A stretch of 64,000 bases of DNA from an uncultured Acholeplasmatales bacterium (GCA_944324805.1 CALUXS010000005.1:25157-89156), one strand, 5' to 3'. Shown: positions 5,653 through 52,780, counted from the first letter of the stretch. The notes: generated by a model not told the origin, from the sequence alone. Translations and numbers: made by a program.

Positions 5653-6513
5653 CTATACATCTAATACTTTTTTAAAATCCACCGGTTTTAATTCAAGAAT
5701 TAATGGTGAAAAATTAACTTTTGTTAATACTTTATTGATTTTTTTCATTTCCTTATAGCTAACATAAAATAAATTACTTACGCTAGATTCTATTTGATGG
5801 AAAAATTTTTTAGTTTTCATTTGAAATTCTTCAGCAGATATAAACATATCCATTTTGGGATCTGTAACATGTATCATATCAACAAATGCAGGAAAAACAA
5901 ATGGTTCAAATCTACTTACTTCAATTGCTGTATAAACTTTTCTTTTTCCTTCTACTGCATAATATGAAATAGTAGGAACTTTAATTTCTTCTTCTTTAAG
6001 TGAATCTTTTAACAAACTAACTTGCTGAAGATAATCGTAAACTTGATTTAAACTTTCTTCCTCAAGTTTATAATAATTACTTATTTCCTCAGGATATTTT
6101 TTCTTATATGCTTGCTTAACAATTTGAAAAGCCTTAATCATCATATTACGTTTGAAAGGAGAAACATCCTCATATATTTCATTATATACATAAAAATCAA
6201 ACATTTTAGTAATGTCTTCGCATATATTTATAATTAATGAAACATCATAAGTAGGTAATAATACTGAGAGTTCAACACGTAAGTTAACGTCAATAAAACG
6301 AGGATTTAAACGCTCAATCCCTGGAACAATCGATTTATTAGAGATAATAAACTCAGCTTTAAACCCTAAAGTTGGATTATAATATCTAGCAATTTTTTCA
6401 TTTTCGTTTTTTGTCACAACGTCAATATAAGGATTTGTAGAAAAATAACTCAATAAATCAGCAACCTCATAATTACGTGTACCCTCTTTAAAAAAATAAT
6501 ACCTAAATAACAT
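5653..6513 (-). CDS. Hypothetical protein (286 aa), no recognisable motif
   Basis: Long ORF co-directional with its neighbours, with a compact 9-nt spacing to deoC. No family recognised. Confidence 0.5.
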   Translation of the reverse strand: MLFRYYFFKEGTRNYEVADLLSYFSTNPYIDVVTKNENEKIARYYNPTLGFKAEFIISNKSIVPGIERLNPRFIDVNLRVELSVLLPTYDVSLIINICEDITKMFDFYVYNEIYEDVSPFKRNMMIKAFQIVKQAYKKKYPEEISNYYKLEEESLNQVYDYLQQVSLLKDSLKEEEIKVPTISYYAVEGKRKVYTAIEVSRFEPFVFPAFVDMIHVTDPKMDMFISAEEFQMKTKKFFHQIESSVSNLFYVSYKEMKKINKVLTKVNFSPLILELKPVDFKKVLDV

Positions 6514-6571: not shown

Positions 6572-6760
6572 TTAAGCCCTAAACCGCAAATAAAAATGCT
6601 TAGTAACCATACACAAAACAATAAGCAAAATCAACATAAAAGGAATGATAAGCCATAAATAATCGATAAAAATAAGTGCATTTATTGATAAAACTAAAAA
6701 ACCGGAAATTGATAGTAACCCAATTGAAAGTGCTAAAACAAATGATCTAAACTTAGACAT
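6572..6760 (-). CDS. Small two-TM membrane protein (62 aa)
   Basis: Two hydrophobic segments. Overlaps the upstream protease gene stop by 8 nt. Confidence 0.4.
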   Translation of the reverse strand: MSKFRSFVLALSIGLLSISGFLVLSINALIFIDYLWLIIPFMLILLIVLCMVTKHFYLRFRA

Positions 6761-7778
6761 TCTTCAAAACCTCCAATGCATCTTGCAAACTATCTACTTT
6801 AAATAGTAACATATTTTTCTTACTAGGTAAAGAGTTATATGCCTCTAAAGCTTCTTCATAATTACCACTAGGACATAAAAAAACATTGACACCATCATCA
6901 TATGCTGTATAAATTTTTTGTTTAATACCACCAATAACACCTACATTACCAAAAGCATCAATTGTTCCCGTACCAGAGATATGTAATCCTCTAGAATAAT
7001 CAAAACTAGTTAGAGAGTTATAAAGAGATAGACTTCGCATTAGTCCACCTGAAGGTCCTGAAGTAAAACTACGTCCAATTTCTAGTTTTGGATATATTTC
7101 ATCGTAATTAATGTCGTAATAAGGATAAAATGCAAATGATTTAATATTTTCATTTGTTAAAGTTAACTCTATATTTTTGCCATCTCTATTAACTATAAGC
7201 TTATCCCCAATTTTTCGATTATTAAAGGCATTTTTGAAATCATCATAGTCGTTACTTCCGTATATAGAATTAATTGCTAATATTTTATCACCTATAAAAA
7301 AATTTGAACCTTCCGCATAGTAACTAACCACTAAACTATTAAAATTATAACTTATTTTTATACTATTATTCTCTGCTTTTGCTAGTTCATAACTAGAAAT
7401 TATCGTTGTCATTAATGCAGAATTATATTGTATTTTTCCCATTTCTGAAAGTTCATCTAATGAAAAATGAAGATAATTATCAGGTAAATCTGAAACTTCA
7501 CTAGTTTTAGAGAAAGAACATAAAAAATTTTGTAAAACGGTTGAATGTTCAAAATCTATTACATAAATCGTAGAAAATGTTCCTTTTGAGTCATAGCCAT
7601 CAATAACCTTTATTACATCATCAACAAAGGTAGTATCCCCCTTTAATGTAACACTTTTATCTGTAAACCATAACCCAGTAATAAGTAGAGGTAAATTTAA
7701 TACTAAGATTAATATTAAAAATATTATTTCCTTTTTATTTAATTTACCTCTTTTTACTGTATTTTTACTCATTTCCAA
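6753..7778 (-). CDS. Membrane-anchored S16 Lon-like serine protease (YlbL/SepM-like)
   Basis: N-terminal TM helix. C-terminal Lon protease-domain motifs SGPSGGLM (Ser) and GGIKQKIYTA (Lys). Confidence 0.7.
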   Translation of the reverse strand: MEMSKNTVKRGKLNKKEIIFLILILVLNLPLLITGLWFTDKSVTLKGDTTFVDDVIKVIDGYDSKGTFSTIYVIDFEHSTVLQNFLCSFSKTSEVSDLPDNYLHFSLDELSEMGKIQYNSALMTTIISSYELAKAENNSIKISYNFNSLVVSYYAEGSNFFIGDKILAINSIYGSNDYDDFKNAFNNRKIGDKLIVNRDGKNIELTLTNENIKSFAFYPYYDINYDEIYPKLEIGRSFTSGPSGGLMRSLSLYNSLTSFDYSRGLHISGTGTIDAFGNVGVIGGIKQKIYTAYDDGVNVFLCPSGNYEEALEAYNSLPSKKNMLLFKVDSLQDALEVLKNV

Positions 7779-10467
7779 GTTTTTTTACGATTTCACGACA
7801 ACGAGGACATAATTCATCTTCATCAATCTCATCTACAACCATCCAGCAACGACTGCAAATATGACCTTTTGCCTCCTCAACCTTAAATTCCAATTTTTCT
7901 GATGGTACTATCTCTAATTTTGAAACAATCAAAATTTGGGCTAAATCAGAATCAAGGCGCTTAAATAAATCAAGATATTTTTGTGGAGCCATAATTGTTA
8001 ACTTGGCACTAAAACTTTTACCGATTACTTTATTAGCACGTGCTTCTTCTAATGCTTTTAATACATCTTGACGAAGTAACATAAAATTATCAAAATCTGC
8101 TTCTAATTCTGCATTATAAACTAAATTAGCTTCAGGCATATCCTCTAAATAAACATCTTCTAATTTCTCTCCTGGTAAATTTTTGTATGCTTCAGTAGCA
8201 GTATGAGGAATAATTGGAGAAAGCAATTTGATCAAGCTTGATTCAATTTGATAGAAAACAGTTTGACAAGATAATCTACGTTTACTATTTGGATCTAAAA
8301 TATATAATACATCTTTTGTAAAATCTAAATAAAATGAACTTAATGTATTGTTAATATAACTATTTACTAAACGATATACATCTCCGAATCTAAATGTATC
8401 ATAAGCATCTTTTACATCCTTAATGAAACTATTCAATTTAATTAACATATATTTATCAACATTTTCTAATTCTTCGAAGCTTAGAGATTTTTTAGGATCA
8501 AAATCACTAGTATTAGCAAGCATAAAACGAATTGTATTACGTATTTTACGATAAGATTCACTAACTTGCTTTAATAATTCTTGACTAATTGGCATGTCAC
8601 TTTGGTAATCGATTGAAGCTACCCATAAACGTAAAATATCTGCACCATTTTCCTTACATACTTTATTTGGATCTATGACATTACCTAATGATTTTGACAT
8701 TTTTCTTCCTTCACCATCTAATGTAAATCCATGTGTTACAACTGTCTTATAAGGAGCTTTTCCAAACATTGATACTCCTGTGATTAGTGATGAATTAAAC
8801 CAACCACGATATTGATCCGCACCCTCTAAATATAAGTCAGCTGGATACTTTAGTCCTCTTCTTTGTAATAGCATATAACTTGAACCACTATCAAACCATA
8901 CATCCATAATATCCTTTTCTTTTGTGAAAATGCCATTTGGAGAATGTTCATTTGTATATCCTTCTGGTAGTAAATCCTTAGCTTCTCTTTCAAACCATAC
9001 ATTTGAGCCAAATTCACCAAATAAATCTGAAATATGACTTAATACCTCTTGGTCTAATACTGGTGTTCCATCTTCGCAATAAAAAATTGGAATTGGCACT
9101 CCCCAAGCTCTTTGACGGCTGATACACCAATCATGACGTTCCTTAATCATATTAGTCATTCTAATGTCTCCCCATTTTGGGTACCATGTAACATTTTTAA
9201 TATTTTCTAAAAGCTCAGGTTTAATTTTATCTATTGAAGCAAACCATTGTGGAGTAGCTCTAAAAATAACAGGTTTTTTTGTACGCCAATCATGTGGATA
9301 GCTATGAGTAATTTTTATTACCTTCAATAAGGCATTACATGCATCCATATCAGCAATTACAGCTTCATTACAATCTTGATAGAACATTCCCTCGTATTTT
9401 CCAGCTTCTTTTGTCATATATCCTTTTGAATCAACAGGACATAGTATATCTAATCCATATTGTTTACCTACTAAATAGTCATCCTCACCATGACCAGGAG
9501 CAATATGTACTAAACCAGAACCATCTGTTGTAGATACATAATCTCCTAAAATACATGGTGAAACTCTATCATACAAAGGATGTTTGTAGTGTAATCCTTC
9601 AAGATCAGAACCTTTGAATTGTTTTAAAATTTCAACATTTCCCAATTCTAACAAGTCTTTCAAAGTATTCAAAAGATCTAAACCAAAAATTAGTTTTCCC
9701 TTTTCTGTGTTTGCTAAAACATAATCGATATTAGGTCCAGCACAAACTGCTAAGTTAGCAGGAAGAGTCCAAGGAGTAGTAGTCCATACTAAAAATGATG
9801 CACCTAAATATTCTTCTTCAACAATTGGAAGTTTAAAATATATAGATGAATCTTGCTTATCATGATACTCTATTTCAGCCTCAGCTAATGCTGATTCACT
9901 AGATGGTGACCAATAAACAGGCTTTAAACCTTTATATATTAGACCTTTTTCAACCATCTTTGCAAATACTTTTACTTGATCACGTTCAAAATCACGTTGT
10001 AATGTGATATATGGATTGTCAAAATCACCAAGCACACCTAATCTTTTGAAACCTTCTTTTTGTTTTAAAACTTGCTCATAAGCAAATTTCTCACATAATT
10101 TTCTAAATTCGATTGTAGAAATTTCTTTTCTATTAATACCCTTCTTTGTAACTGCAAGTTCTGTTGGTAAACCATGTGTATCCCAACCAGGTATATATAA
10201 TGAATAAAAGCCATTCATATTCTTATAACGAACTACAAAGTCCTTTAATATTTTATTTAATGCATGGCCTAAATGAATTGCTCCGTTAGCATATGGTGGA
10301 CCATCATGCAATGTATATTCTCTTTTAGTTTTATTTTTTTCTAATACTTTTTGATATAATTTAATATCTTCCCAATTTTGTTCAATCAATGGTTCTTTTT
10401 GGCCTAAATTACCACGCATTTCAAAACTGGTTTTACCCATAAATAATGTGTCTTTGTAATCTTTCAT
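7765..10467 (-). CDS. ileS: Isoleucine--tRNA ligase
   Basis: HLGH (class I HIGH), KMSKS, editing domain and C-terminal CxxC...CxxC zinc knuckle. Ile-specific T-box lies upstream. Confidence 0.97.
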   Translation of the reverse strand: MKDYKDTLFMGKTSFEMRGNLGQKEPLIEQNWEDIKLYQKVLEKNKTKREYTLHDGPPYANGAIHLGHALNKILKDFVVRYKNMNGFYSLYIPGWDTHGLPTELAVTKKGINRKEISTIEFRKLCEKFAYEQVLKQKEGFKRLGVLGDFDNPYITLQRDFERDQVKVFAKMVEKGLIYKGLKPVYWSPSSESALAEAEIEYHDKQDSSIYFKLPIVEEEYLGASFLVWTTTPWTLPANLAVCAGPNIDYVLANTEKGKLIFGLDLLNTLKDLLELGNVEILKQFKGSDLEGLHYKHPLYDRVSPCILGDYVSTTDGSGLVHIAPGHGEDDYLVGKQYGLDILCPVDSKGYMTKEAGKYEGMFYQDCNEAVIADMDACNALLKVIKITHSYPHDWRTKKPVIFRATPQWFASIDKIKPELLENIKNVTWYPKWGDIRMTNMIKERHDWCISRQRAWGVPIPIFYCEDGTPVLDQEVLSHISDLFGEFGSNVWFEREAKDLLPEGYTNEHSPNGIFTKEKDIMDVWFDSGSSYMLLQRRGLKYPADLYLEGADQYRGWFNSSLITGVSMFGKAPYKTVVTHGFTLDGEGRKMSKSLGNVIDPNKVCKENGADILRLWVASIDYQSDMPISQELLKQVSESYRKIRNTIRFMLANTSDFDPKKSLSFEELENVDKYMLIKLNSFIKDVKDAYDTFRFGDVYRLVNSYINNTLSSFYLDFTKDVLYILDPNSKRRLSCQTVFYQIESSLIKLLSPIIPHTATEAYKNLPGEKLEDVYLEDMPEANLVYNAELEADFDNFMLLRQDVLKALEEARANKVIGKSFSAKLTIMAPQKYLDLFKRLDSDLAQILIVSKLEIVPSEKLEFKVEEAKGHICSRCWMVVDEIDEDELCPRCREIVKKLGNE

Positions 10468-10478
10468 AATATTCCTCC

Positions 10479-10692
10479 AAAAAAAAATCGCCCTTAAAAA
10501 GGGCGAATGACAATCCGTGGTACCACCTTATTTCTAGCATAGCTAGCACTCAACACCGTAACGTGGCAAAACGGAAATTCTTTGCAAATTTCTTCTTCAA
10601 CAGTGATTTAAAAATAGTGTTCATCCTACCTTTCACCAACGTAGGTCGCTTTTCAATAAACCATCTATTTTACGTCTGTTATCATCAAAATT
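10479..10692 (-). promoter_or_regulatory. T-box riboswitch leader, Ile specifier AUC
   Basis: Read on the minus strand. Stem I has a GA/K-turn (UGAUGA...GAAGA). The specifier loop ..AAAUCA abuts helix AACAG/CUGUU, with AUC at 10605-10607. AGCGA bulge and distal loop UUGGUGAAAG are present. T-box sequence is AAGGUGGUACCACGG (10515-10530). Terminator is tcgccctt-aaaa-agggcga (10488-10506) plus a U9 run. Confidence 0.9.
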
Positions 10693-10698
10693 CACCAT

Positions 10699-10727
10699 AT
10701 TATAGCAAATTTTTTTATTATTATCAA
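10699..10727 (-). promoter_or_regulatory. Promoter of the ileS leader (TTGATA-17-TGcTATAAT)
   Basis: -35 TTGATA at 10722-10727 and -10 TATAAT at 10699-10704 with a TG extension. Sits directly after the sepF stop. Confidence 0.7.
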
Positions 10728-10729
10728 TA

Positions 10730-11041
10730 TTATAGTTGATTTAAAAACTCTTGTAATGAACCATCTTCAAAATCTTCATTACGTGCAAATAAATACGTTG
10801 CTTCATTTATCTTAACTGTTCTTCCATCAAGCGCATAAGCTGCACCAGTGAAAAATGCCAACAGTTTATTAGCAGACATTAAATCTAACTTTTCAAAATT
10901 AATAACTAATGGTGTACCATTTCGCAATTTATCAACTAAATCAGCTGCATACTCATCATCATCACTGATTTGTTCCATAATTATTTGGTCACTCTTTTTT
11001 ACATCAGAATTTGAATCCTTTTTTCGACTAAATAATCCCAT
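10730..11041 (-). CDS. sepF: Cell division protein SepF (short, 103 aa)
   Basis: SepF/DUF552 core pattern: ..DDEYAADLVDKLRNGTPLVINFEKLDLMSANKLLAFFTGAAYALDGRTVKINEATYLFA. N-terminal MGLFSRKK is a candidate amphipathic membrane anchor. Position upstream of ileS matches the Bacillus dcw-cluster end. Confidence 0.75.
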   Translation of the reverse strand: MGLFSRKKDSNSDVKKSDQIIMEQISDDDEYAADLVDKLRNGTPLVINFEKLDLMSANKLLAFFTGAAYALDGRTVKINEATYLFARNEDFEDGSLQEFLNQL

Positions 11042-11045
11042 TTAA

Positions 11046-14000
11046 TTATTCACCTCTTGTTTTCAAAACTGGTAAAACTTGTGCCTTAGAACCTTGACGG
11101 GCCATAATTAAAATAGTATCGGCATAGTCTTGTAGTAAACTCATACGTTGAGGAGGACATGCAATTAATGTTTGTAAAGGCATTGAGGTAATGAAATCCA
11201 TCATTGCTCTCATTCTATTACTATCCATCTTATCGAAAACCTCATCGAACATAATTATACCTATTGGATCTCCACCAAAGGCACTAGTCTTAGTATAAAT
11301 TCTAACAAATGATGCTATCATAGCAACATAGAATGGAACTTGTGTTTCACCACCGGATTTTTCCTTAAAGACCTTAGAATATGACATAGTTTCTCCATCC
11401 TTATTAGTGATTTTTATATCATAATCCATATATGTTCTATAATCTGTAAATTTATTAATAGCACCATGAGAATTTATTTCATCAACTGATAAGCTATCAA
11501 ATAATTCTTTAATTTGATTTTCATATTTTGCTTCAAAATTTGATGTAAATAAACCTGATGCATTTTCACTTAAATCACTAGTTACCATTTCATAGAAAGC
11601 ACCATATTCACTACTCTTAGGGAAAACAAATTCATATGTATCATTACCAAAATGAATATTAGCAAGAGTATCATTAATTTTGCCAATTTCAACCTCAGCT
11701 TGTTCGATATTTGCTCTTAATTTAGCAATGAAATCTTCTTTAAATATTAATTCTGCTTCCTCACGAGCTGTCCTTACCTTTTGCTCATACTTAACTAGTT
11801 CTGTTTTTTCTAATTTATTTAACTCATTGAAGTAAGAAGGCATCTCATTATATCCAATTGAGAAACTAGAGTCATAATCATTTATGTATTTGAATTGCTT
11901 ATCAACTAATGCTTTTGATAAAGAATCAAATGAACTATCTTCTTTCTCATATCTATTTTTATATTCATTATAAGCTTCATTGAATGTTTTTTCCTCTGTA
12001 AGCTCATTAAATTCTCTAATTGCTCTTTCTTTTAATTCAATATTATCTTGCTCTGCAGATTCTAAATTTTTTTGTTCATTTAAAAGCTTATTCTTTTCTT
12101 CATTAATTCGATTATTAATGTTATCAATATTTTGTTCAATACGTCCTATATCTAAAACAACACTATTTTTTCTTTGCTCAGAATTTTTAATTGTATTAAG
12201 AACAAATTCATAGTCTTGTTCTAACTCTTTTACTGATAAAGTGTTTAAATGTTCTTTTTGTAAATATAAACCCTTTACAGTATCTTTTTCATGTTCTAGA
12301 CGTAACGCACCATCAATTCCAATTAATATATTTTGGAAGTCAAGAGAGTCAAAAGACCTTAATTCGTCTTCGATAGTTTGAATATTTTCATTAACGACTA
12401 AATATTGTTTCTTAGCCTCAAGAGCTCTAGATTCCCATAATTTTTGTTGAGATTGATAAGCATTTTTACCACAGAAAGGCTTTTCAATATTTGGATTCAT
12501 TGATCTAACAGTATAACCACTATATAGTAAATAATCATTAGTAATGGATGTATTGTATTTTTCTAATTCCAATTCATTATCACACATAATTACATTTCCG
12601 CAAGTCATATTAATATATGCTCTTGCATCTGCATTCTCACTATCCATAATACTTGCCAAACTATGTGGTTCATATGTCTTATATTTTGCAATTTGTTTTG
12701 TATTAACTAAACCTATTCCATAAAGGCTATAACGATTTTTTATTCTTGCAAATATTTGTAATGCTTGATCGAAATATCGTGGCTCAACAATCATATTAAA
12801 TCTTCTATTGCCTAAGAAAACCTCAATTGTATCAGCCCAATTAGGGTCTTTTATCTCAACAAGCTCTGCAAAAATGAAAACAGGAATATCATAGTTGTAT
12901 ATACGTTTTAAACCTTCTGTTATCTCATTACGCATATTTACAAGTCTAACATCAAAGTTAACTTTATTTTGACTTAATCCCTTTAATGCTGTAGATATTT
13001 CGTTAACATTTTTCAATATTTCTGTTTTTTGTAATTGTAAAGCACCTAAATCTTGATTTGCTTTTTGCTTATATTGCTCTACTAAAGTTCTTGCTTCTGT
13101 TAATTTTAGTCTAGTAAACTCAACTTCGTTTTGATTTAAATTAACAAGACTCATATTAGCTAAATCATTAAATATTTTACGGTCTTTTTTCTTTCTCAAA
13201 TTATTGATAATCTCTTTGAATATTGTAACTTGCTTAAGAAATTTAGAATTATCTTCCTCTAATTCTCTTATATTACGTTCTCTTTCATTAATCTCACGTG
13301 TTAGATTTTCGTTATTTTTAAAAGATTCATCATTACTTAAAGCGTTATATAATTCTTTACTTCTTTGATTTAATCCTGCTAACTCTCTTTCAATTGAACG
13401 TAAGTCTGACTCTTTATTAGCCTTTCTAAGCTCCTCTTTTTCAATATCCTTTTTTAAATCTTCAATCAAAAATTTGATTTTTTCAACACTAAATAAGTTA
13501 CCTAAATATTCAGCATATGTTTTATTTTCAACAATTTTTTCCAATTCTTGATAAATACTTGCCATTTCTTTCAAATCATTAATCTTTGTTTTAATCAATT
13601 TTAATGTTGTTTCTAATTCTTTGTAAGAACGAATAGTATCTTTTATTGCTGAAACATCTATTTCTTTTTCTTCAAGTACATTTTGATAAATAAATTCTTT
13701 AACATCAGAAATTGGCTTAAATGCTAGGGCTTTAGGAATTAGTTTAAAGAAATCCTCATTAATTGAACCAAATGCATTTCTAAAACCACGTTTAGCATCC
13801 TTTTTAGTTAAGAAAAATTCGAAATCAGGATGATTCTTTCTAAATATTACTGTACTATAAATCATTCCATCTTGTGAAACAAACCAAGAATCATCTATAG
13901 GTAAATCAACTTTATAGAATAAAGTTTTTACTGGCATTAATTCACCAAAAGCGTCAATTACAACACCAACAGTAAAATCTTTATTTAATTTCTCATCATG

Positions 14001-14285
14001 AAATTGAAGAGCTATATGTCCTGTTACATCGCCATCACGTAAATACTCTTTATCATCTAAGCCTAACTTACATTTTACATAGCCACGTAAATCACGCTTA
14101 CTTTTTTCATTTGCTGCCATATTGAAATTAGTTTCTCCAGCTGTTATTACATACATAATAGCATCCATTATTGTAGATTTACCAGAAGCGTTAGGTCCTG
14201 TTAGTAAGACATGATTATTAACTTCAATTGTTTCATTTGTTAAGTAATGCCAGTTTATTAAACGAATTTTAGTTAGCTTTTTCAT
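11046..14285 (-). CDS. SMC-like ATPase of JetC/MksB type
   Basis: N-terminal IRLINWHY..LLTGPNASGKSTIMDAI (Walker A). C-terminal SGGETQVPFYVAMIASF (signature) and IIMFDEVFDKMD (Walker B). About 800 aa of E/K/L-rich coiled-coil-like sequence lies between them, with a central non-coil segment as a putative hinge. Preferred start is ATG 14283-14285 (MKKLTK) behind GGAGGTGA. Confidence 0.75.
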   Translation of the reverse strand: MKKLTKIRLINWHYLTNETIEVNNHVLLTGPNASGKSTIMDAIMYVITAGETNFNMAANEKSKRDLRGYVKCKLGLDDKEYLRDGDVTGHIALQFHDEKLNKDFTVGVVIDAFGELMPVKTLFYKVDLPIDDSWFVSQDGMIYSTVIFRKNHPDFEFFLTKKDAKRGFRNAFGSINEDFFKLIPKALAFKPISDVKEFIYQNVLEEKEIDVSAIKDTIRSYKELETTLKLIKTKINDLKEMASIYQELEKIVENKTYAEYLGNLFSVEKIKFLIEDLKKDIEKEELRKANKESDLRSIERELAGLNQRSKELYNALSNDESFKNNENLTREINERERNIRELEEDNSKFLKQVTIFKEIINNLRKKKDRKIFNDLANMSLVNLNQNEVEFTRLKLTEARTLVEQYKQKANQDLGALQLQKTEILKNVNEISTALKGLSQNKVNFDVRLVNMRNEITEGLKRIYNYDIPVFIFAELVEIKDPNWADTIEVFLGNRRFNMIVEPRYFDQALQIFARIKNRYSLYGIGLVNTKQIAKYKTYEPHSLASIMDSENADARAYINMTCGNVIMCDNELELEKYNTSITNDYLLYSGYTVRSMNPNIEKPFCGKNAYQSQQKLWESRALEAKKQYLVVNENIQTIEDELRSFDSLDFQNILIGIDGALRLEHEKDTVKGLYLQKEHLNTLSVKELEQDYEFVLNTIKNSEQRKNSVVLDIGRIEQNIDNINNRINEEKNKLLNEQKNLESAEQDNIELKERAIREFNELTEEKTFNEAYNEYKNRYEKEDSSFDSLSKALVDKQFKYINDYDSSFSIGYNEMPSYFNELNKLEKTELVKYEQKVRTAREEAELIFKEDFIAKLRANIEQAEVEIGKINDTLANIHFGNDTYEFVFPKSSEYGAFYEMVTSDLSENASGLFTSNFEAKYENQIKELFDSLSVDEINSHGAINKFTDYRTYMDYDIKITNKDGETMSYSKVFKEKSGGETQVPFYVAMIASFVRIYTKTSAFGGDPIGIIMFDEVFDKMDSNRMRAMMDFITSMPLQTLIACPPQRMSLLQDYADTILIMARQGSKAQVLPVLKTRGE

Positions 14286-14874
14286 TGTCTTCACCTCCAT
14301 CACTAATTCTCAATATAGTTTGATATATTGTATTAATATCCTCGCTTGGAATAGCCATTAATATTGTAGGTAATATAACTATTCTACAAGCAGATGTAGT
14401 CAAATCACCAGTTGCTTCTATTAAGTTATATCTTCTAAATAATCTAAGCGCTGATACTAAATCAGTCTTATTCAACTTTCTTTTAATTTCAAGATAATCA
14501 TATTTTTCATGTATGTCAGACACTTGACAAACTATATTATCATTAAGTGAAGCTTCTTTTAACTTCTCATGATAAAGAAGTCTTAAAATTAATAATATAA
14601 CCGATTCATCACGTTTAAGGTGCAATGTAGCAGCTTCCTTTGAACCCGATAACATAACGGCACCTTTTTGTTGGTCTAAATTTATTTCTAAACCAAGAAT
14701 CTTAAAAAACTCATCAAATATATCCTTGTAACTCATTAAGAAATAATAGGCCTCTTTGTTATCCTTCTTATCTTTAGCAAGAAAATTATAACTTAAAAGT
14801 CTATTTGCTACATCACGAAACAAATTTTGCTGAGTTGTAGTCATTTTTTCTAAATTTTCAAGCATATTATTCAT
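14269..14874 (-). CDS. JetB/MksE-like (KITE, DUF4194-like) subunit candidate
   Basis: 201 aa, the typical size. Has the pattern ..LL...FL......Y..L......F...F..LGLEI..D...G...L......[15 protein letters not shown] common to DUF4194/MksE proteins. Overlaps both neighbours. Confidence 0.6.
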   Translation of the reverse strand: MNNMLENLEKMTTTQQNLFRDVANRLLSYNFLAKDKKDNKEAYYFLMSYKDIFDEFFKILGLEINLDQQKGAVMLSGSKEAATLHLKRDESVILLILRLLYHEKLKEASLNDNIVCQVSDIHEKYDYLEIKRKLNKTDLVSALRLFRRYNLIEATGDLTTSACRIVILPTILMAIPSEDINTIYQTILRISDGGEDNEKAN

Positions 14875-16279
14875 CTCTCTTTCTTATAATAAAATCACGC
14901 ATTTTCAAATGATTATTATAAATACGTCCATTTGTGATTAGAACCTCAAAATTATCTTCATTTTCTAGCGCATATAATATTGCATATATAGCAAGCATAG
15001 AGAGAGATAATTCAGTATCCTTCTTTATTACATCGCTTCCATATAACTTTCCATCAATCATAAAGTCATGCAAAAAGATTTTTATATCACTCTCTTTGTA
15101 TGGAGCACTATATGCAGCAATAAAGTCTGCTTCTATATCAAAGCCATCTAATCTAGAATCATCTAAAAGCATATTAAAATTCCTTTTATATGCTCCACGT
15201 GGAACATACAGTGAATTTTCATCAATACGCTTATTTTCCGTTAACTTAATTCCGCCATTTACTAATTTAAGAGCCTTTTCAATGTGATCTTTTTTATGTT
15301 CATCTCTTATATGCTTCAAAATTCTATTTAATTTGCCGATAATATTATCGTCTTCTGATAATAAAAATTTAATTTTTGAAATAGTTGAATTAATATAATT
15401 ACGATTTTTCTCATCAATTTCCGTAATAAAATCATCAAGAGCATTAAATACATCAATAATTTCATCAATATCACGATTTGCTCTATTAATTGCGTCATCA
15501 TGATTCAATTTAGGATAATTTAGTGTTAAAACTCCCATAATATCTGGATTATTTTGATACTCTTCAAGTTTAGTAACAATTCTCAGCCTATATCTATTGA
15601 TATTATCTGACATTTTTAATTTTGCATATCCATTTTCTACAAAATCTTGACGATAATTAACTAGGTTTTCCATTAATTCTTTTACATCTGTATTTGAAAA
15701 TACTGAACTAATATAATCTTTTAATCTAGAATCTAGGCGTCTTATTGAACGTAATAAAAGTTTTGTATTACGATAGACTTCTTGCATTATTACGCTATAT
15801 TCAATATTATCCTCATTAGTTAATAAAGAGTATATTGTATATATATATCCTTGATATTCAGCCTTGTTATATTCATAAGTATTATCATCGTCACTATTAT
15901 ATAACATCGGTGCAATTTGCATCATAGCCTCACAAAGAGTAATACCAGCATCACTAAAATTTAAAATTTCTTCATAATCATTAGTAACGTCAATATATAT
16001 CCAACCACACTCTTCCATCTTTCTTAATACATAATTTGCTAATTCACGACTAGAATTTGGATTAGCCTCTTCATCATCCTCATCTTCTTGAGTATAATTA
16101 TAATTATTTGTATCAAGATAATGAACAAGTTCATCAACAACAATTTTCTTTTCTATTCCTAAAATAGAACCAGATTCATACACCTTAAAAGCTTCAATTA
16201 TTAAGGATGAATAAATACGTTTGTTCTTTGACGTCAAAATAGAAAAGAAGTTTTCTGGAACAAATTGAAATAAATCCAT
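14867..16279 (-). CDS. JetA/MksF-like (kleisin) subunit candidate
   Basis: 470 aa and first gene of the operon, in the kleisin position of jetABC/mksFEB. Has an acidic central patch QEDEDDEEAN. The call rests mainly on size, order and 8-nt overlap coupling, not on a recognised motif. Confidence 0.45.
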   Translation of the reverse strand: MDLFQFVPENFFSILTSKNKRIYSSLIIEAFKVYESGSILGIEKKIVVDELVHYLDTNNYNYTQEDEDDEEANPNSSRELANYVLRKMEECGWIYIDVTNDYEEILNFSDAGITLCEAMMQIAPMLYNSDDDNTYEYNKAEYQGYIYTIYSLLTNEDNIEYSVIMQEVYRNTKLLLRSIRRLDSRLKDYISSVFSNTDVKELMENLVNYRQDFVENGYAKLKMSDNINRYRLRIVTKLEEYQNNPDIMGVLTLNYPKLNHDDAINRANRDIDEIIDVFNALDDFITEIDEKNRNYINSTISKIKFLLSEDDNIIGKLNRILKHIRDEHKKDHIEKALKLVNGGIKLTENKRIDENSLYVPRGAYKRNFNMLLDDSRLDGFDIEADFIAAYSAPYKESDIKIFLHDFMIDGKLYGSDVIKKDTELSLSMLAIYAILYALENEDNFEVLITNGRIYNNHLKMRDFIIRKRDE

Positions 16280-16305
16280 TTTTTATCACCACTCACTTAA
16301 TATAG

Positions 16306-16335
16306 ATTATAGCATATATTCACGCTATGAGACAA
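16306..16335 (-). promoter_or_regulatory. Promoter of the SMC-like operon (TTGTCT-18-TGcTATAAT)
   Basis: -35 at 16330-16335 and extended -10 at 16306-16311. RBS GGTGA precedes the ATG at 16279. Confidence 0.55.
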
Positions 16336-16341
16336 CAATTT

Positions 16342-18075
16342 TTAATTATTTATATTTGCATACTGAGCCTCATAAATAGTCTTATAAAAACCATTTTTTT
16401 CTAACAATTCAGCATGCTTACCTACCTCAACTATATTACCATCTTTTAAAACTAAAATCAAATCTGCGTTTTTTATAGTAGATAATCTATGTGCAATAAT
16501 AAAAGCTGTCTTATTTTCCATAAGCTTTAAAAATGCCTTTTGAACTAATTGTTCAGTTCTTGTATCAATATTCGATGTAGCCTCATCTAATATTAGTATC
16601 TTAGGTCTTCTTAACATTAATCTACTAATACATAGTAATTGTTTTTCCCCAATCGAAAGTCCAGAATCATCACTTACAATAGTATCATATCCACAAGGCA
16701 TTCTAGTAATAAATTCATCAGCATATGCTAGCTTAGCAGCTTTTTCTATTTCATTAAATGATGCATTTGAACCATAATTGATATTATCTTTTATTGAAGC
16801 TTTATAAAGCCATGTGTCTTGTAAAACCATACCAATATTATTTCTCAATGAAGAACGCTTAAATTTACTTATATCATTACCATCTATTAATATTTTACCT
16901 TCGTTTAAATTATAAAACCTCATCAATAAATTAATAATTGTAGTTTTACCTGCTCCTGTAGGACCAACAATCGCAACCTTTGTTCCATGTTTAACATCAA
17001 GCGAAAAATTATTTATTAGTGGTTTATCTTTAACATAACTAAACGAAACATTTTGAAAACTTACATTACCTTCAACTTCAGGTAAATCTAACAAATTATC
17101 ATCATTTAAAATCTCTAAATCAATTATTTCAAATATTCTTCTCGCACTAGCAAAGCTATTTTGTAATTCAGAAGCAACACTACTTATGTCATTAAAAGGT
17201 TTAGTATAGGATGATGCATAATTTAGAAAAACTGTCAAATCTCCAACTGTTATTAATCCACCAACAGCTCTTATAGCACCAAATACACCAACTGCAGCAT
17301 ATACTAATGAGTTAACAAATCTAGTACTAGGGTTAACAAGTGAAGAATAGAATTGAGCTTTTACTCCAACCTTATATAGTCTATCATTAATTTCCTTAGT
17401 TTTTCTAGATGCTTTATCTTTATAATCATATGCAATTACTACTTTTCCCATATCAAACATCTCATTAATATGTCCACTTAATTCACCTTTTATTTTAGCT
17501 TGGGCTTGAATTGTTTTGTATGATGCCCTAGCAATTAATGATGCTGTTAGTAATGAAATAGGAGTAAGACATATTACTATTAATGCTACTTGATAGGAAA
17601 CAACTAGCATAAATACTAATGTAGTTATTATCGTAATAATACCACTAATCAACTGATTAAGTGCCTGTAGTAATCCATCACCTAGTTGATCAACATCACC
17701 AATAAGCCTCATTACTAAATCTCCTTGCGATGAAGAATCAAGATATGATATAGGCATAAATAGCAATTTAATAAAAGCCTTTTCTCTTAACTCCTTAAGT
17801 AATGAATTAGTTATTACATTCATTAAATATTGCATTAAAAAACCAAATAGACCATTTATAAATATTACAACTATTAGAACAAATATTATCTTGAATAAAA
17901 AAGAAAAATTTACATTATTGATTCCTTGTATTTGATCAACTGCCTTACCTATAATAATAGGTAAAACCAAAGATGCTGAGACCTGAATAATTGTTGCTAA
18001 AAGTGCAAAAATAAATAAAAACTTTTGCTTTGCTATAAGCTTTACTATTCTACGCTTTACCTTCATAGATTTCAT
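16342..18075 (-). CDS. ABC exporter, fused permease/ATPase (heterodimer partner B)
   Basis: Six-TM N-terminal domain. Walker A GPTGAGKTT, signature LSIGEKQ and Walker B ILILDEATS. Confidence 0.9.
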   Translation of the reverse strand: MKSMKVKRRIVKLIAKQKFLFIFALLATIIQVSASLVLPIIIGKAVDQIQGINNVNFSFLFKIIFVLIVVIFINGLFGFLMQYLMNVITNSLLKELREKAFIKLLFMPISYLDSSSQGDLVMRLIGDVDQLGDGLLQALNQLISGIITIITTLVFMLVVSYQVALIVICLTPISLLTASLIARASYKTIQAQAKIKGELSGHINEMFDMGKVVIAYDYKDKASRKTKEINDRLYKVGVKAQFYSSLVNPSTRFVNSLVYAAVGVFGAIRAVGGLITVGDLTVFLNYASSYTKPFNDISSVASELQNSFASARRIFEIIDLEILNDDNLLDLPEVEGNVSFQNVSFSYVKDKPLINNFSLDVKHGTKVAIVGPTGAGKTTIINLLMRFYNLNEGKILIDGNDISKFKRSSLRNNIGMVLQDTWLYKASIKDNINYGSNASFNEIEKAAKLAYADEFITRMPCGYDTIVSDDSGLSIGEKQLLCISRLMLRRPKILILDEATSNIDTRTEQLVQKAFLKLMENKTAFIIAHRLSTIKNADLILVLKDGNIVEVGKHAELLEKNGFYKTIYEAQYANINN

Positions 18076-25451: not shown

Positions 25452-25480
25452 ATTATACCATACCTTACATCATGAAACAA
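25452..25480 (-). promoter_or_regulatory. Promoter of the hisS-aspS leader (TTGTTT-17-TGgTATAAT)
   Basis: -10 at 25452-25457 with a TG extension. The -35 at 25475-25480 overlaps the end of the upstream ORF. Confidence 0.55.
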
Positions 25481-26660
25481 GGTTAAAATTGTTAGAATCC
25501 GCTATAATAGTCTCATTTTTATGATAATCCATTATTAAGCCATACAACTCCTTAATATCATCGACTAGTCTCTCTTTTATAGGATTATAACCATTTTTTA
25601 CCGCAAAATCCAAATATTCATTAGCTTTTTTTACAAAAGAATTTACATCAGTAATTTTGATTTCTTGTCCACCTTCATTTAATGCATATGATGCAATAGA
25701 TAAATAAATATTAATTGCATAATTTGAAGAAAATGACAAAGCTCTTTCGTAAACCACATTGATATTAGCAGCTTCTAAAGTATTTTTGATGATAAAATAT
25801 ATTTGTGCGTCATTTACAATTAATTTTTCAGGTAATCCATTTTTTTCCAAAAAATTGATAAGATTTCCCCACAAATATTCTATATAATTATTTTCAACAA
25901 ATTCAAAGCACTCTACGCATTTAAATGGTTTTTCATATTCACCATAACCAACAAAATAAAGAAAACCATTTTTAGAGCTTGGGGCAGCAAAGTAGCTAGT
26001 ATAAAGGGAATACTCACCTGCAACTCTTTTTAAATTTGATAATTCTAAAACAATATTATCATTTTTTCTTTTTTGTTTGTAAGTAAAGGCAGGAATGAAT
26101 TCATCTTTATTAGTAACTCTTAAGTTATAATAATACTTATCTGGGTTTATATCTAATAAAAACAATACATCTTTATTAAGTTCTTGATAATCTTTCGTTC
26201 TAAAAATTTCTTTTAAAACAAATATAATTTGTTCGTACTCAAAAATTTGCTTTTCGGAGATTTTTGCGTTTTTTGTTCCTTTATTAAAACACTCAATTAT
26301 TACATTGATGTTTTTTGAAATTCTTTTCTGAACTGTTTTCAAAATATACTTATCCATGAAGTCTAATTCATCACTTTTTACATATCTTACACATAAATAT
26401 TCTAAATTAGCATCATCGAATGATGTATCATTGTTAGTATTGTTAATATCATAAAATGTTTGAATTCCATCATTTCCTGGATATAGCCTAATACCAACAC
26501 TTTTTTCATCCTTATATATATCTAATAAATAAAAATTTCTTTTTTTGTCATTAAATTGAATAGATAATCTAATGCTATGTTCAAGTTTTTCTACAAGTTG
26601 ATTATAAATAGTTTTAAATAGCTTTTCTAATCTTTTGTATTTATCTAAATCTAACATCAT
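25470..26660 (-). CDS. Hypothetical protein (396 aa), translationally coupled to rsmD
   Basis: Long ORF whose ATG overlaps the rsmD stop (ATGA). No motif recognised. Confidence 0.5.
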   Translation of the reverse strand: MMLDLDKYKRLEKLFKTIYNQLVEKLEHSIRLSIQFNDKKRNFYLLDIYKDEKSVGIRLYPGNDGIQTFYDINNTNNDTSFDDANLEYLCVRYVKSDELDFMDKYILKTVQKRISKNINVIIECFNKGTKNAKISEKQIFEYEQIIFVLKEIFRTKDYQELNKDVLFLLDINPDKYYYNLRVTNKDEFIPAFTYKQKRKNDNIVLELSNLKRVAGEYSLYTSYFAAPSSKNGFLYFVGYGEYEKPFKCVECFEFVENNYIEYLWGNLINFLEKNGLPEKLIVNDAQIYFIIKNTLEAANINVVYERALSFSSNYAINIYLSIASYALNEGGQEIKITDVNSFVKKANEYLDFAVKNGYNPIKERLVDDIKELYGLIMDYHKNETIIADSNNFNLVS

Positions 26661-49750: not shown

Positions 49751-52700
49751 ATGTTAAAAATTGATATTTTTTCAACGAAAATGCGTAGAATTTTATCTAT
49801 TTTGATTCTCGCAATTCTTACAATAACAATTACAGGATGTAAATCAAAGGTAGTTGACACTTTGCCTTATGATGAAAACTATCTAACTGTAGGTAATTAT
49901 TCTGTTACTAAAGGTGAGGTATGGAATGAATTAAAATGGAATGCTGCTGATTTATTTGATACTAAAGCACAAGAGGCAGTTCTTAATAAATACATTGAAG
50001 ACATTAAAAATGTAATGTCTAATCCATCTGATTCTAAGTATACAGAATATAAAACACGTCTTCAAAGTTATCTTGTTGAAGATGTATATGATTTGACATT
50101 CTCACTTGAAAGTCATGATGAAGAAATTGAAGACTTAAAAGCGGATGCAAAAACAAAAAGTATTAAAAAATATGCTGATGAAGTATATCAAAATTATAAG
50201 GTTGACATTAAAACCGAAGAAATCATTAATGCACTTGAAGCAAATGATTATGACAAATTAAGCCCTCTATATGAAAATTATTATTTAAATTATGCAAAAG
50301 AACTTCTAGCAATTGACAAATTAAATGAAGAAATAGAGGAAAAAAATAAAGAAGCTTTAGAAGATGATGATGAAGATACAGTTGGTTACTTCACTAAATC
50401 TGAAATTGTTTCTAAATACAAGGATAAATATTTACATCAAGGATATGTAGATGTCATAATGATTAAATTTGCTTCTGAAACTGAAGCTAAAGAAACTCTA
50501 AGAGCATTTGGTTTGATAGTTAATGATGAAAATCAATTATGCTATCTAACTAATACACCTTCTAATTTTAATGATTATAAAAAATATTATGATGAATTTG
50601 ACTTTGATGAAAAAACTGAAAGTGATTATTTACCATTAGACTCATATTATGGTAGTTCTATTATTTTACAATTATATATTGCAATGTATAACTATATTTA
50701 CACTTATCGTGATGCAATAGAAAACATAGATGTAAACATGCAAAATATTATTGATCAACGTAGTACTACTGCTGCTTTAATTGAGACATATAATGATTTA
50801 GAAATCAAAAATAAAGATGAAGAAGATAAACGTATTGATGATATAATGAAACAAGTTAATTCTGATGGTCCAAATGAATTCGTTCGTTATACTGCAGAAG
50901 AAATTAACGATATTGATTCAAGTTTATACGATTACATCTATGAGACACTTCAAACACCTGAAGAAACTATTAAAGATGGTGAAGAACAATCAGATAAAAT
51001 TAATCGTTATACTACTTCTCCAAAATCTATTAATAGCAACTACTATATGATTTATAAAGTTGATTACGAAGAAAATGTTGCAGATGATAAATTATATGAT
51101 AGTGAAGATGATACTGATGAACTATACAATAAAATAGTTAAAGATGAAAATTTATATTCTAGAATCATAAAAGATTTAACTAATGAAGATTTAACTTCTT
51201 CTTATATTGATGAAAAATTAAATGCTGAAATGGAAAACGTTAAAGTTAAGATTTTCGATAAGAGTATCGAAATTGCTTATAGTGTAGACCACTCAGATTA
51301 TAATAAAACATTATCTAAAGCTCCTGATACAAATACAATTGCTACATTTGAATATGATGGCACTACTATTTCATATTATTTAACTACTGAAGATGGAAAA
51401 GGATTATGGGATATTCTAGAGTATCGCAATGGTACTTCTGTTGCTTCTAATTTAATATCTACAAAAATGATTAAAGACTCAGAAGAGTATAAATCAATTC
51501 CTCAGGAAGATATTGATTCTTACTACAAATCAATAGAGTACGTTTTAGCATCATTTGCAAACGATGCTTTAGCTTCAAATGGATATCCTGCTTCAATTGG
51601 TAAGTATAATTTCTTGATGTTATATTATCATACAGCAGATGTTGATCAAATTGTTGATGATGTTTTCAAAGTAAGTAACGCAAGTTCTCAAATCTTAACT
51701 AACTATATTGCTGATGATACTCTTGAATTCTTTAACTATTATAATGAAATTGCATATAAAAATTTCTTTTCAGTAAACGCAACTGATTTAAAAATATATT
51801 TAGATAAAGACGAAGATGGCGAAGCAGATGAAATCGATTGGAATACTGAAGTTGTTACAATAGATGGTGAATTTAAAGGAATGCTTCTAAAGGATGTTGC
51901 AAAGGAACTTGTAGAAACTATTTACACAAAAGTTGCTGCTACTTCTGGAGATCATAAAACTGCCTTAACAGATATTGTATCTACTTACAATTCAACTAGT
52001 CGTTTTAATCCTAAAGAAGGCGGCCAATTTGATGATGATGAATATGATCCAATTGGTTCAGAATGGGATTATGCAAAATTCAAAAGAACAGGTCTTGTTA
52101 TTTCAACAGAAGATTTAACTGTTACTAACTCTTCAACTGATATTGATATTAACATTATGAATAAACTTCGTGATGTATATATGGATAATAATTTGGCTGA
52201 AAAAGAATATTCAGAAGTTATTTTAGAAAATCCTAATGATGAAAATGCTTTGGTTGAAGCTAATAATTGTCTAAATTATTTCTTAATTACTGGTTATGAA
52301 AAACCAGCAAGTGCTAAGTTTGAAGCATATAAGGATGTTGATGGAATTTATCAAAATATTGTATACAAATACAATGAAGATTATATTACAGTTGAAAATG
52401 TTTATAATGATGGAGATATGCTTAATAAGAATCAAATAGAAGCTTACATACTTGAATATTTAGCATCTTCTACTTCTAACTTACTTCCAACTGATATATC
52501 TACTAGTCTTACAAATTTCTTAAGTCCAATTTTAACTCGTTACCAAGATACTGCTACTCAAATAGAAATCATTTATAACTATGTATCAAATGGAGACAAC
52601 TCTGCATATCAATTTGCTGATTCAAATAATAATGAACGTTTTGAAACATTAAGAGAAATTAACATTAGAGTTGCAGACGATTATAAAACTTATGAAAATG

Positions 52701-52780
52701 AAGAAGATGAAGCAAAATTCAATAATTTTGCTGGTTGGTGGGACAAATTAAAAGAATTGTCAAATGGAGGTAATAAATAA
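49751..52780 (+). CDS. Giant acidic lipoprotein, PrsA/SurA-like with degenerate parvulin-like modules
   Basis: Signal peptide plus lipobox LTITITG|C. N-terminal YLTVGNYSVTKGEVWNELK resembles the PrsA/SurA N-domain. The parvulin-equivalent segments read ATDLKIYL ... NYFLITGY, so both His are absent. D/E/N/Y-rich. Confidence 0.6.
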   Translation: MLKIDIFSTKMRRILSILILAILTITITGCKSKVVDTLPYDENYLTVGNYSVTKGEVWNELKWNAADLFDTKAQEAVLNKYIEDIKNVMSNPSDSKYTEYKTRLQSYLVEDVYDLTFSLESHDEEIEDLKADAKTKSIKKYADEVYQNYKVDIKTEEIINALEANDYDKLSPLYENYYLNYAKELLAIDKLNEEIEEKNKEALEDDDEDTVGYFTKSEIVSKYKDKYLHQGYVDVIMIKFASETEAKETLRAFGLIVNDENQLCYLTNTPSNFNDYKKYYDEFDFDEKTESDYLPLDSYYGSSIILQLYIAMYNYIYTYRDAIENIDVNMQNIIDQRSTTAALIETYNDLEIKNKDEEDKRIDDIMKQVNSDGPNEFVRYTAEEINDIDSSLYDYIYETLQTPEETIKDGEEQSDKINRYTTSPKSINSNYYMIYKVDYEENVADDKLYDSEDDTDELYNKIVKDENLYSRIIKDLTNEDLTSSYIDEKLNAEMENVKVKIFDKSIEIAYSVDHSDYNKTLSKAPDTNTIATFEYDGTTISYYLTTEDGKGLWDILEYRNGTSVASNLISTKMIKDSEEYKSIPQEDIDSYYKSIEYVLASFANDALASNGYPASIGKYNFLMLYYHTADVDQIVDDVFKVSNASSQILTNYIADDTLEFFNYYNEIAYKNFFSVNATDLKIYLDKDEDGEADEIDWNTEVVTIDGEFKGMLLKDVAKELVETIYTKVAATSGDHKTALTDIVSTYNSTSRFNPKEGGQFDDDEYDPIGSEWDYAKFKRTGLVISTEDLTVTNSSTDIDINIMNKLRDVYMDNNLAEKEYSEVILENPNDENALVEANNCLNYFLITGYEKPASAKFEAYKDVDGIYQNIVYKYNEDYITVENVYNDGDMLNKNQIEAYILEYLASSTSNLLPTDISTSLTNFLSPILTRYQDTATQIEIIYNYVSNGDNSAYQFADSNNNERFETLREINIRVADDYKTYENEEDEAKFNNFAGWWDKLKELSNGGNK

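Follow-up and report, generated by a model that had tools for sequence, protein, structure and literature searches.

What function is left to a Wadjet-type complex when the nuclease that completes the defence system is not encoded beside it? This question is raised by a 64,000-nucleotide stretch of DNA from an uncultured Acholeplasmatales bacterium (GCA_944324805.1, CALUXS010000005.1:25157-89156; referred to here as the window, with positions counted from its first letter), in which three genes for a complex of the structural maintenance of chromosomes (SMC) type are followed directly by the division gene sepF (positions 10,730 to 16,335, minus strand). The interconversion of defence and chromosome-organising SMC complexes is an open question; the events that gave rise to MukBEF and MksBEF are old, and their proteins have diverged greatly. 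An earlier reading of the sequence by a model, made without database searches (the original prediction), had recognized a nuclease-less operon of the Wadjet/MksFEB type and offered three explanations for it, these being a chromosome-organising condensin, a defence module with its effector elsewhere or replaced, and a decayed system. As described below, the locus carries jetABC with sepF as a conserved fourth gene, and the explanation that we favour, and regard as fairly probable, is that a type I Wadjet of Firmicutes was domesticated independently, much as proposed for MksBEF, into a nuclease-free SMC complex that would be co-expressed with the FtsZ anchor SepF and would serve the chromosome.

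The four genes are closely packed on the minus strand. The first, jetA (14867-16279), encodes a predicted kleisin subunit of 470 amino acids, and the second, jetB (14269-14874), a predicted KITE subunit of 201 amino acids, or 198 with the start used in database gene calls, which lies three codons later. The third gene, jetC (11046-14285), encodes an SMC-family ATPase of 1079 amino acids counted from its ATG. Its open reading frame (ORF) reaches a GTG at 14303 (11046-14303), giving 1085 amino acids; the version beginning at the ATG is 100% identical to database protein P0001, and this start agrees with the consensus N-terminus of the homologues, MKKLxKIRLINWHY. With jetC counted from the ATG, the overlaps amount to 8 nucleotides between jetA and jetB and 17 nucleotides between jetB and jetC; the earlier description of three overlapping minus-strand genes is thus correct. 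The stop codon of jetC (11046-11048) is followed after 4 nucleotides by the ATG (11039-11041) of sepF (10730-11041), the product of which has 103 amino acids and consists of an MGLFSRKK N-terminus, a short acidic linker and the SepF core. A sequence reading GAGGTG (11051-11056), the apparent ribosome-binding site of sepF, lies within the final codons of jetC, and so this arrangement too is present as originally described.

Each of the three upstream proteins was assigned to the same system by profile searches. JetA matched Pfam JetA (PF18982, DUF5716; 5e-69, residues 32-468) and, over the full length of a 467-position profile, PADLOC JetA1 (PDLC00442; 7e-109, residues 1-468 of the protein); no MukF or MksF match for the kleisin was found in Pfam. 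With JetB, a pattern resembling DUF4194 and MksE had been noticed, and both families were indeed recovered, DUF4194 at 1e-29 (103 bits) and MksE at 8e-7 (30 bits, cut-off 27), together with a full-length match to PADLOC JetB1 (PDLC00479; 3e-62). In Pfam, JetC found only generic ATPase domains (SbcC_Walker_B and AAA_29), and MukB_N scored 16.8 bits, below its cut-off of 23. In PADLOC, JetC matched JetC1 over its full length (PDLC00519; 2e-303, residues 7-1078), and, among solved structures in the PDB, the ATPase had significant matches to JetC chains alone (8AS8/8BFN/9QXT and 8DK1-3) from Escherichia coli GF4-3 and Pseudomonas aeruginosa, the best matches being 9QXT/8AS8. On these sequence comparisons, the three proteins are the kleisin, KITE and SMC-type ATPase of JetABC as found in the type I Wadjet of Firmicutes; the gene order had been likened to both jetABC and mksFEB, and the Pfam, PADLOC and PDB matches place the proteins in JetA, JetB and JetC.

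A RecN-, SbcC- or RecF-type ATPase was considered for the large protein and ruled out, as its scores lay far below the family cut-offs in NCBIfam (TIGR02168 SMC_prok_B, 42 bits against 567; RecF, 31 against 172; Rad50, 14 against 1000) and its partners are JetA and JetB. The ATPase motifs LLTGPNASGKST, SGGETQV and IIMFDEVFDKMD were all found in JetC, and the core residues of the Walker A, signature and Walker B motifs were invariant among 17 homologues of 58-100% identity (mean column identity 74%). An AlphaFold model of JetC built from the 17-sequence alignment was of low confidence (predicted local distance difference test score [pLDDT] 58, predicted template modelling score 0.33). It places a head half first, followed by helices at approximately residues 218-469, a central alpha/beta domain at 475-612, helices at 613-881 and a second head half, a layout that would agree, at that low confidence, with SMC architecture; the two long helical stretches and the domain between them are the parts modelled with confidence. 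The motifs of the approximately 1079-residue ATPase stood as first described, whereas its coiled coil, put earlier at some 800 amino acids, is modelled as an arm of approximately 2 x 250 amino acids. Similarly, the length of JetA was correct, but the acidic patch ascribed to the centre of the protein (EDEDDEE) occupies residues 65-71 and is thus N-terminal.

Type I Wadjet has a fourth subunit, the nuclease JetD, and in every characterised or annotated system seen in this analysis jetD directly follows jetC. A JetD profile was therefore built from three annotated Firmicute plasmid Wadjet loci with this arrangement, one of the three JetDs being confirmed as PADLOC JetD1 (7e-108), and was run on six-frame translations with all filters off. 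The positive controls returned values of 1e-184 to 1e-211, and nothing better than E = 0.2 was obtained in the 64-kb window, in 88 related loci (approximately 1.4 Mb) or in 13 metagenome loci; no JetD was present among the Pfam-annotated ORFs of the window. On a 167-kb scaffold of the same species, the called genes in the approximately 10 kb past each end of the window included no jetD, smc, scpAB or ftsZ, and motif searches and profile scans of the fetched loci, which cover approximately ±8-10 kb around the operon in each genome, found no smc, scpAB, ftsY, ftsZ or second sepF. The literature consulted on Acholeplasma, Tenericutes, Izemoplasma and division in Firmicutes likewise made no statement on these genes in this lineage. 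The absence of JetD thus holds locally, in the window, its flanks and approximately 100 related loci, which upholds the earlier statement that no Toprim nuclease gene (JetD/MksG) is present at the locus and means that no adjoining jetD turns it into an ordinary Wadjet. Judged from these searches, the locus is a JetABC without its defining fourth subunit and is not to be filed as a complete Wadjet system.

The same data bear on the proposal that the complex still acts in defence against plasmids or other mobile DNA, with JetABC sensing small circular DNA and the response then completed by a nuclease whose gene lies elsewhere or by a non-cutting outcome, such as compaction, silencing or mis-segregation. 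All three proteins are full-length and of the same JetABC subfamily as those of JetD-bearing systems, and the stretch covered around each operon is short enough that a distant nuclease gene would have lain beyond it. Against this, jetD was found in none of approximately 100 loci, despite its invariable position behind jetC in the characterised or annotated systems seen; the distribution of the operon, considered further below, also speaks to this proposal.

In the window, and in a clade of its relatives, it is sepF that occupies this position. Among the best 120 clusters listed, JetC homologues had 58-77% identity, and the named sources were Anaeroplasmataceae, Anaeroplasma and metagenome-assembled genomes (MAGs) of Acholeplasmatales. 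In one relative of 61% identity the flanking genes were wholly different on both sides, and the jetA-jetB-jetC-sepF block was kept. When each GTDB species was then scanned through a single genome, 80 loci with JetC identities of 44-76% were obtained, including that of the cultured Anaeroplasma bactoclasticum ATCC 27112; jetA was found in every related locus long enough to show it. With the 78 loci having a complete jetC, a SepF gene followed directly in 56, was absent with sequence available in 20, and could not be scored in two that end too early. In all 56 species-level genomes of this SepF-linked clade sepF overlaps or abuts the jetC stop codon, through a one-base TAATG overlap (approximately 27 loci), a ATGGGGCTTTTTAG overlap or a spacing of a few nucleotides, and a GGAGG-like site is found in the final jetC codons of relatives at the same place as GAGGTG in the window. 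The last JetC codons of many species are rich in Glu and Gly (with …EEDEE or …EVEEEE before the stop), such that the GGAGG ribosome-binding site of sepF is written in the jetC frame (window 11046-11060, L013-L022).

The surroundings of this block are far more fluid than the block itself. Downstream of sepF, 22 gene families were found in 48 loci, the commonest being IleS (9 loci), and upstream of jetA, 16 families in 45 loci, the commonest being YchF (24 loci); no rearrangement in the loci scored has separated jetC from sepF, or jetA, jetB and jetC from each other. The linkage was also examined in reverse by a SepF-anchored scan of Joint Genome Institute metagenomes, using an alignment of seven SepF sequences as query. 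It recovered 12 SepF genes of the clade type, and all 10 that have upstream sequence follow jetC, the other two lying at contig edges where they are not scorable. As a control, the scan also recovered the distant canonical SepF of a high-GC organism (L109) in the classical ylmE-sepF-proC order, and it is therefore able to detect SepF genes that are not jet-linked. The adjacency noted in the original prediction as read-through into sepF is thus real, but sepF is more than a read-through neighbour; throughout the clade it belongs to the operon as a conserved fourth gene, fixed in 56 of 56 and 10 of 10 loci, and its other neighbour is not, since ileS comes next in only 9 of the 48 loci compared.

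The SepF encoded in the window is a recognizable member of its family (Pfam SepF, PF04472; 4e-12, 46.5 bits against a cut-off of 27), and the domain scored above the Pfam cut-off in 28 of 28 sampled clade members. With the clade profile, the top seven PDB matches were all SepF structures, including that of Bacillus subtilis (3ZIH) at 1e-7, with which the core motifs align residue for residue. Clade SepF proteins have 102-118 amino acids, comprising an MGLFGKKK N-terminus, a candidate membrane-targeting sequence of only approximately eight residues with F4 invariant and a conservation of at least 90% at K7, an acidic linker that varies, and a DGSL motif conserved at the C-terminus; a single-sequence AlphaFold model had a pLDDT of 55 overall and below 50 at the N-terminus, where it is unreliable. 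Canonical SepF shares the domain and the core motifs, but has approximately 150 amino acids with an amphipathic helix of approximately 13 residues, and its gene stands beside ylmE/ylmG or ftsZ, whereas that of the clade is embedded in an SMC operon. The ancestral order of the Firmicute DCW2 division cluster is ylmE, sepF, ylmG, ylmH and divIVA, then ileS (PMC8136486), and sepF is located directly 5' of the T-box of ileS both in the window and in the nine clade loci with ileS. Because sepF still adjoins ileS, as in DCW2, the sepF of the window looks like the ancestral division-cluster gene and not a novel paralogue.

Transcription signals were sought in positions 10300-16500. The promoter-like site proposed for the operon, TTGTCT-18-(TG)cTATAAT (16306-16335, minus strand), is a consensus match located in the 62-nucleotide gap that follows an ATP-binding cassette (ABC) exporter gene; it has 10 of 12 consensus positions together with the TG of an extended -10 element, and ranks second among the sites of the region, so that the sequence is present as described and is one of the two best. 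Because the total of such sites was not above that in shuffled sequence (39 versus 41.4), it is regarded as a plausible promoter of jetA and nothing firmer. The operon ends at a boundary (10488-10727, minus strand) made up of an ileS promoter-like site (10699-10727; 11 of 12 consensus positions with TG), a T-box leader (10496-10694) and a terminator (10488-10506). This last, the attenuator of the ileS leader, is the sole terminator-like site in the region, and none was found between jetA and the end of sepF; with only 4 nucleotides between jetC and sepF, jetA-jetB-jetC-sepF is a predicted four-gene transcription unit. The T-box that had been placed after sepF was recovered as a full-length match to RF00230 (83.4 bits, E = 7e-19) in a relaxed Rfam search, under the curated gathering cut-off of 93 bits, at which nothing was returned. 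This leader would consequently escape standard Rfam annotation. Weak promoter-like matches are also present within the 3' end of jetC.

These signals and the ancestry of sepF would suit an expression ratchet, in which jetABC landed 5' of the ancestral sepF, the promoter of sepF itself was lost and later separation of the two became lethal, in which case the job of JetABC could be anything. Such a history would account for the gap of 4 nucleotides or the overlap at the junction, the lack of a convincing separate promoter for sepF and the position of this DCW2 gene beside ileS; moreover, a sister clade described below has jetABC without sepF, so JetABC needs no adjacent sepF, and SepF and JetC divergence are correlated only weakly (r = 0.45), in an estimate that is noisy given the shortness of SepF. 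However, through 21 or more rearrangements downstream and 15 or more upstream, no lineage gave sepF a promoter and moved it, and with weak promoter-like matches already lying in the 3' end of jetC, escape should not be hard. The TAATG-type translational coupling is also typical of stoichiometrically linked partners. We therefore consider the ratchet a possible but less likely account of the linkage.

The mode of inheritance of the operon was assessed by its co-divergence with linked housekeeping genes. Pairwise JetC identity was correlated with that of linked YchF (r = 0.91, 32 loci; mean identities 0.62 and 0.76) and of linked IleS (r = 0.88, 15 loci; 0.53 and 0.67), JetC being only moderately the less conserved in both comparisons. 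The divergence of JetA (r = 0.96) and of JetB (r = 0.95) follows that of JetC. Between the closest genome pairs, the ratio of nonsynonymous to synonymous substitution rates (dN/dS) was 0.05-0.19 for jetABC, with jetB at 0.05-0.13, and 0.16-0.25 for sepF, these values being rough as synonymous sites are near saturation. The operon is found in core-gene contexts, ppa-ychF…ileS in the SepF-linked clade and dnaK-dnaJ…rsmE-mtaB in the SepF-less one, its GC content in the window (0.26-0.30) is the same as that of its flanks, and the nearest plasmid-borne JetC has 25-32% identity. Given the co-divergence with YchF and IleS coupled with the dN/dS values, jetABC is a vertically inherited core chromosomal set under purifying selection in wall-less Bacilli of the Anaeroplasmataceae/Acholeplasmatales type, and neither an island nor a product of decay.

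Recent horizontal acquisition was ruled out by the flat GC content and the co-divergence with housekeeping genes. The decayed system listed in the original prediction, that is, a Wadjet remnant left after loss of its effector, has in its favour only that JetD is missing; the ORFs are intact and full-length in 78 species, the ATPase motifs are invariant, and the low dN/dS and the tight co-divergence of the three proteins tell the same way. These conservation data refute pseudogenisation, and we attach almost no credence to decay. The earlier lean toward a housekeeping or segregation role over island-borne defence is strengthened by the core-genome context and by the co-divergence with YchF and IleS. 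A continuing role in defence, introduced above, fares poorly for the same reasons, as the distribution is vertical, of a single context and core-genome-like, and not patchy or island-borne, and close plasmid-borne relatives are lacking; we judge it unlikely.

The 20 loci without sepF belong to Izemoplasmatales and 'UBA' Bacillales, with one MAG each from Acholeplasmataceae and Erysipelotrichales, and they too are without JetD. Here, dnaK, dnaJ and a PadR-like gene mostly precede jetABC, and rsmE and mtaB follow. The gene for the small PadR-like regulator (cluster c8, 18 loci) lies directly 5' of jetA, at a distance of approximately 150-480 nucleotides (L062, L064, L065, L070-L077, L079, L080, L082-L085, L087 and L088; for example, L071:5536-6012), which suggests regulated expression in this clade. 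In a neighbour-joining tree of JetC the SepF-linked and SepF-less loci were split in 99 of 100 bootstrap replicates (unrooted). When the tree was rooted on JetCs of JetD-bearing plasmids, both clades were reciprocally monophyletic with no JetD-bearing sequence inside, in 12 of 30 replicates, and only the unrooted split was relied on. The nearest JetD-bearing relative was approached instead through the shared PADLOC sub-model, the JetC homologues listed being the best 120: the JetD-bearing Firmicute JetCs and the JetD-less JetCs of both clades all match PDLC00519 best, at 558-1183 bits. Because the rooting is weak, loss of JetD is taken from this subfamily membership and from precedent, and the simplest history, the order and direction of which we infer, would be loss of jetD from a Firmicute type I Wadjet ahead of the split between the two clades, followed by a single sepF fusion.

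SepF might have taken over the slot of JetD as a true partner, and the docking site was examined as a potential indicator of whether partner binding was kept or lost. In E. coli, JetD docks through its aCAP domain on F919 of the JetC 'larynx' (bioRxiv 10.1101/2023.11.03.565488). Residues 917-920 of the window JetC (approximately 11527-11538, minus strand) form a conserved G-L/I-F motif that aligns with this F919, and in both JetD-less clades the equivalent residue is still mostly Phe, replaced by Leu or Met in certain sublineages. Its retention is compatible with a surviving partner interface and would neither support nor exclude a replacement partner; it also counts in favour of a continuing defence role. 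As a partner, SepF would tether the loop-extruding JetABC to the membrane or FtsZ ring, such that DNA was reeled from, or organised at, the division site. In keeping with this, sepF holds the exact position of jetD in Firmicute jetABCD operons, its linkage is as tight as that among jetA, jetB and jetC and holds in both search directions, and the JetD-docking hydrophobic residue is kept. There is also a precedent in Corynebacterium glutamicum, where MksBEFG is placed at poles and septa through DivIVA, with MksF/MksG-DivIVA contacts seen in two-hybrid assays (PMC10123090). DivIVA and SepF are DCW2 neighbours (PMC8136486), and because DivIVA, another protein of this cluster, positions MksBEFG, a physical contact between SepF and JetABC would not be far-fetched. 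On the other hand, the core of SepF appears canonical and carries no extra domain, and the sister clade keeps the same larynx residue without sepF linkage, so the residue is not SepF-specific. A direct partnership is accordingly best treated as a doubtful proposal.

Returning to domestication, a JetABC that lacks the nuclease would keep its capacity for loading on DNA, ATP hydrolysis and loop extrusion, and would not cut. As a nuclease-less JetABC would extrude and be unable to cut, and given the precedent of MksBEF and MukBEF, its most likely role would be that of a chromosome folding and segregation motor. With sepF on the same mRNA and translationally coupled to jetC, the supply of the membrane anchor of the Z-ring would be tied to that of the SMC motor, and this coupling would coordinate nucleoid compaction or clearance with Z-ring assembly in wall-less cells. 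Several points weigh against domestication. Support for rooting the JetC tree on JetD-bearing sequences, which are very distant, is weak, as noted. The persistence of Phe at the F919 equivalent would suit a retained partner, and a JetD or other nuclease may be encoded far from the operon. Smc-ScpAB, if still carried, may make a second condensin less necessary, and the conserved sepF adjacency could be a pure expression dependency devoid of functional meaning.

Comparison with known systems helps to place the locus. Type I Wadjet JetABCD (E. coli GF4-3 JET, P. aeruginosa PA14, and Firmicute plasmid systems, for example those of Cohnella, Rossellomorea and Butyrivibrio) has the same three core proteins in the same order and of the same sizes, the same PADLOC JetA1/JetB1/JetC1 assignments and, with the Firmicute JetD-bearing systems, the same sub-model PDLC00519. 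It differs in carrying JetD and in being sporadic or plasmid-borne, whereas loci of the window type lack JetD, are inherited vertically in the core genome and have sepF in the position of jetD. MukBEF and the MksBEF of P. aeruginosa have been proposed to descend from Wadjet systems that lost JetD and to act in organising the chromosome (PMC10586767), and mycobacterial MksB provides a further nuclease-less, chromosome-organising case (PMC11329512). Like these, the window clade has a kleisin-KITE-SMC complex without a nuclease, maintained as a stable, vertical chromosomal set. Its proteins are nevertheless not members of the Mks or Muk families, as seen from the MksE and DUF4194 scores of JetB (30 versus 103 bits) and the sub-threshold MukB_N score of JetC (16.8 bits), and no linkage with sepF is reported for either family. 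Because the sequences are those of JetABC, and not of Mks or Muk, the JetABC of the window clade appears to have been domesticated independently, in another phylum-level lineage. C. glutamicum MksBEFG is likewise a Wadjet-class complex tied to a division-cluster protein, but there the link is by protein localisation and the complex keeps its nuclease, MksG, and acts in plasmid defence, whereas the window clade has a conserved operon, translational coupling and no nuclease. A full-text search found no paper treating SepF together with Wadjet, JetD, JetC, JetABC, MksB or MksBEF(G). With Smc-ScpAB, finally, the system has in common the general SMC architecture and a presumed chromosome-folding role; the ATPase is not a member of that family (42 bits against the 567 of TIGR02168), and its partners are JetA and JetB in place of ScpA and ScpB.

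The remainder of the window is of a housekeeping character, comprising aminoacyl-tRNA synthetases, suf genes, the ATP synthase operon, infC with rplT, and genes of uronate catabolism. Immediately 5' of jetA are two genes with the domain pair ABC_membrane and ABC_tran, the ABC exporter described at the outset. Two large adjacent ORFs (49751-52780 and 52780-55503, plus strand), in which the stop of the first touches the start of the second, encode proteins of 1009 and 907 amino acids that had no Pfam match at E <= 1 and no PDB sequence match at E <= 0.01; the pair is also found on related contigs, unannotated there as well. Ribosomal protein L20 (27853-28461, minus strand) has 202 amino acids, approximately 80 more than usual, with L20 itself confined to residues 1-109 and a C-terminal extension ending in Rho_N (167-201). 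A membrane protein of 341 amino acids with only a weak Lon_C (S16) domain is encoded at 6753-7778 (minus strand), overlapping the 3' end of ileS. Conserved proteins of 286 amino acids with no Pfam match (5653-6513, minus strand) and of 396 amino acids with DUF6930/DUF7309 (25470-26660, minus strand) were also observed.

For annotation, the immediate consequence is that these loci, now labelled 'AAA family ATPase' or 'hypothetical', will be skipped by defence finders that require JetD. For the family, the window clade presents proteins that are still unmistakably type I JetABC, yet with the nuclease gone, inheritance vertical and sepF fused across dozens of species. It would thus offer a young, sequence-tractable case of domestication in Mollicute-like Bacilli, with two comparison groups, the SepF-less sister clade and the JetD-bearing relatives, and with one or more members that can be cultured. 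A link between an SMC motor and an FtsZ anchor also becomes open to testing here, in wall-less bacteria that probably lack the usual nucleoid-occlusion systems. A bolder reading, that SepF has functionally replaced JetD to give a membrane- or Z-ring-anchored loop extruder, or that JetABC has displaced Smc-ScpAB as the sole condensin, is improbable on present evidence. If true, the first would couple chromosome clearance to division in wall-less bacteria, and the second would represent a third, independent 'MukBEF-like takeover', with A. bactoclasticum ATCC 27112 as its cultured representative.

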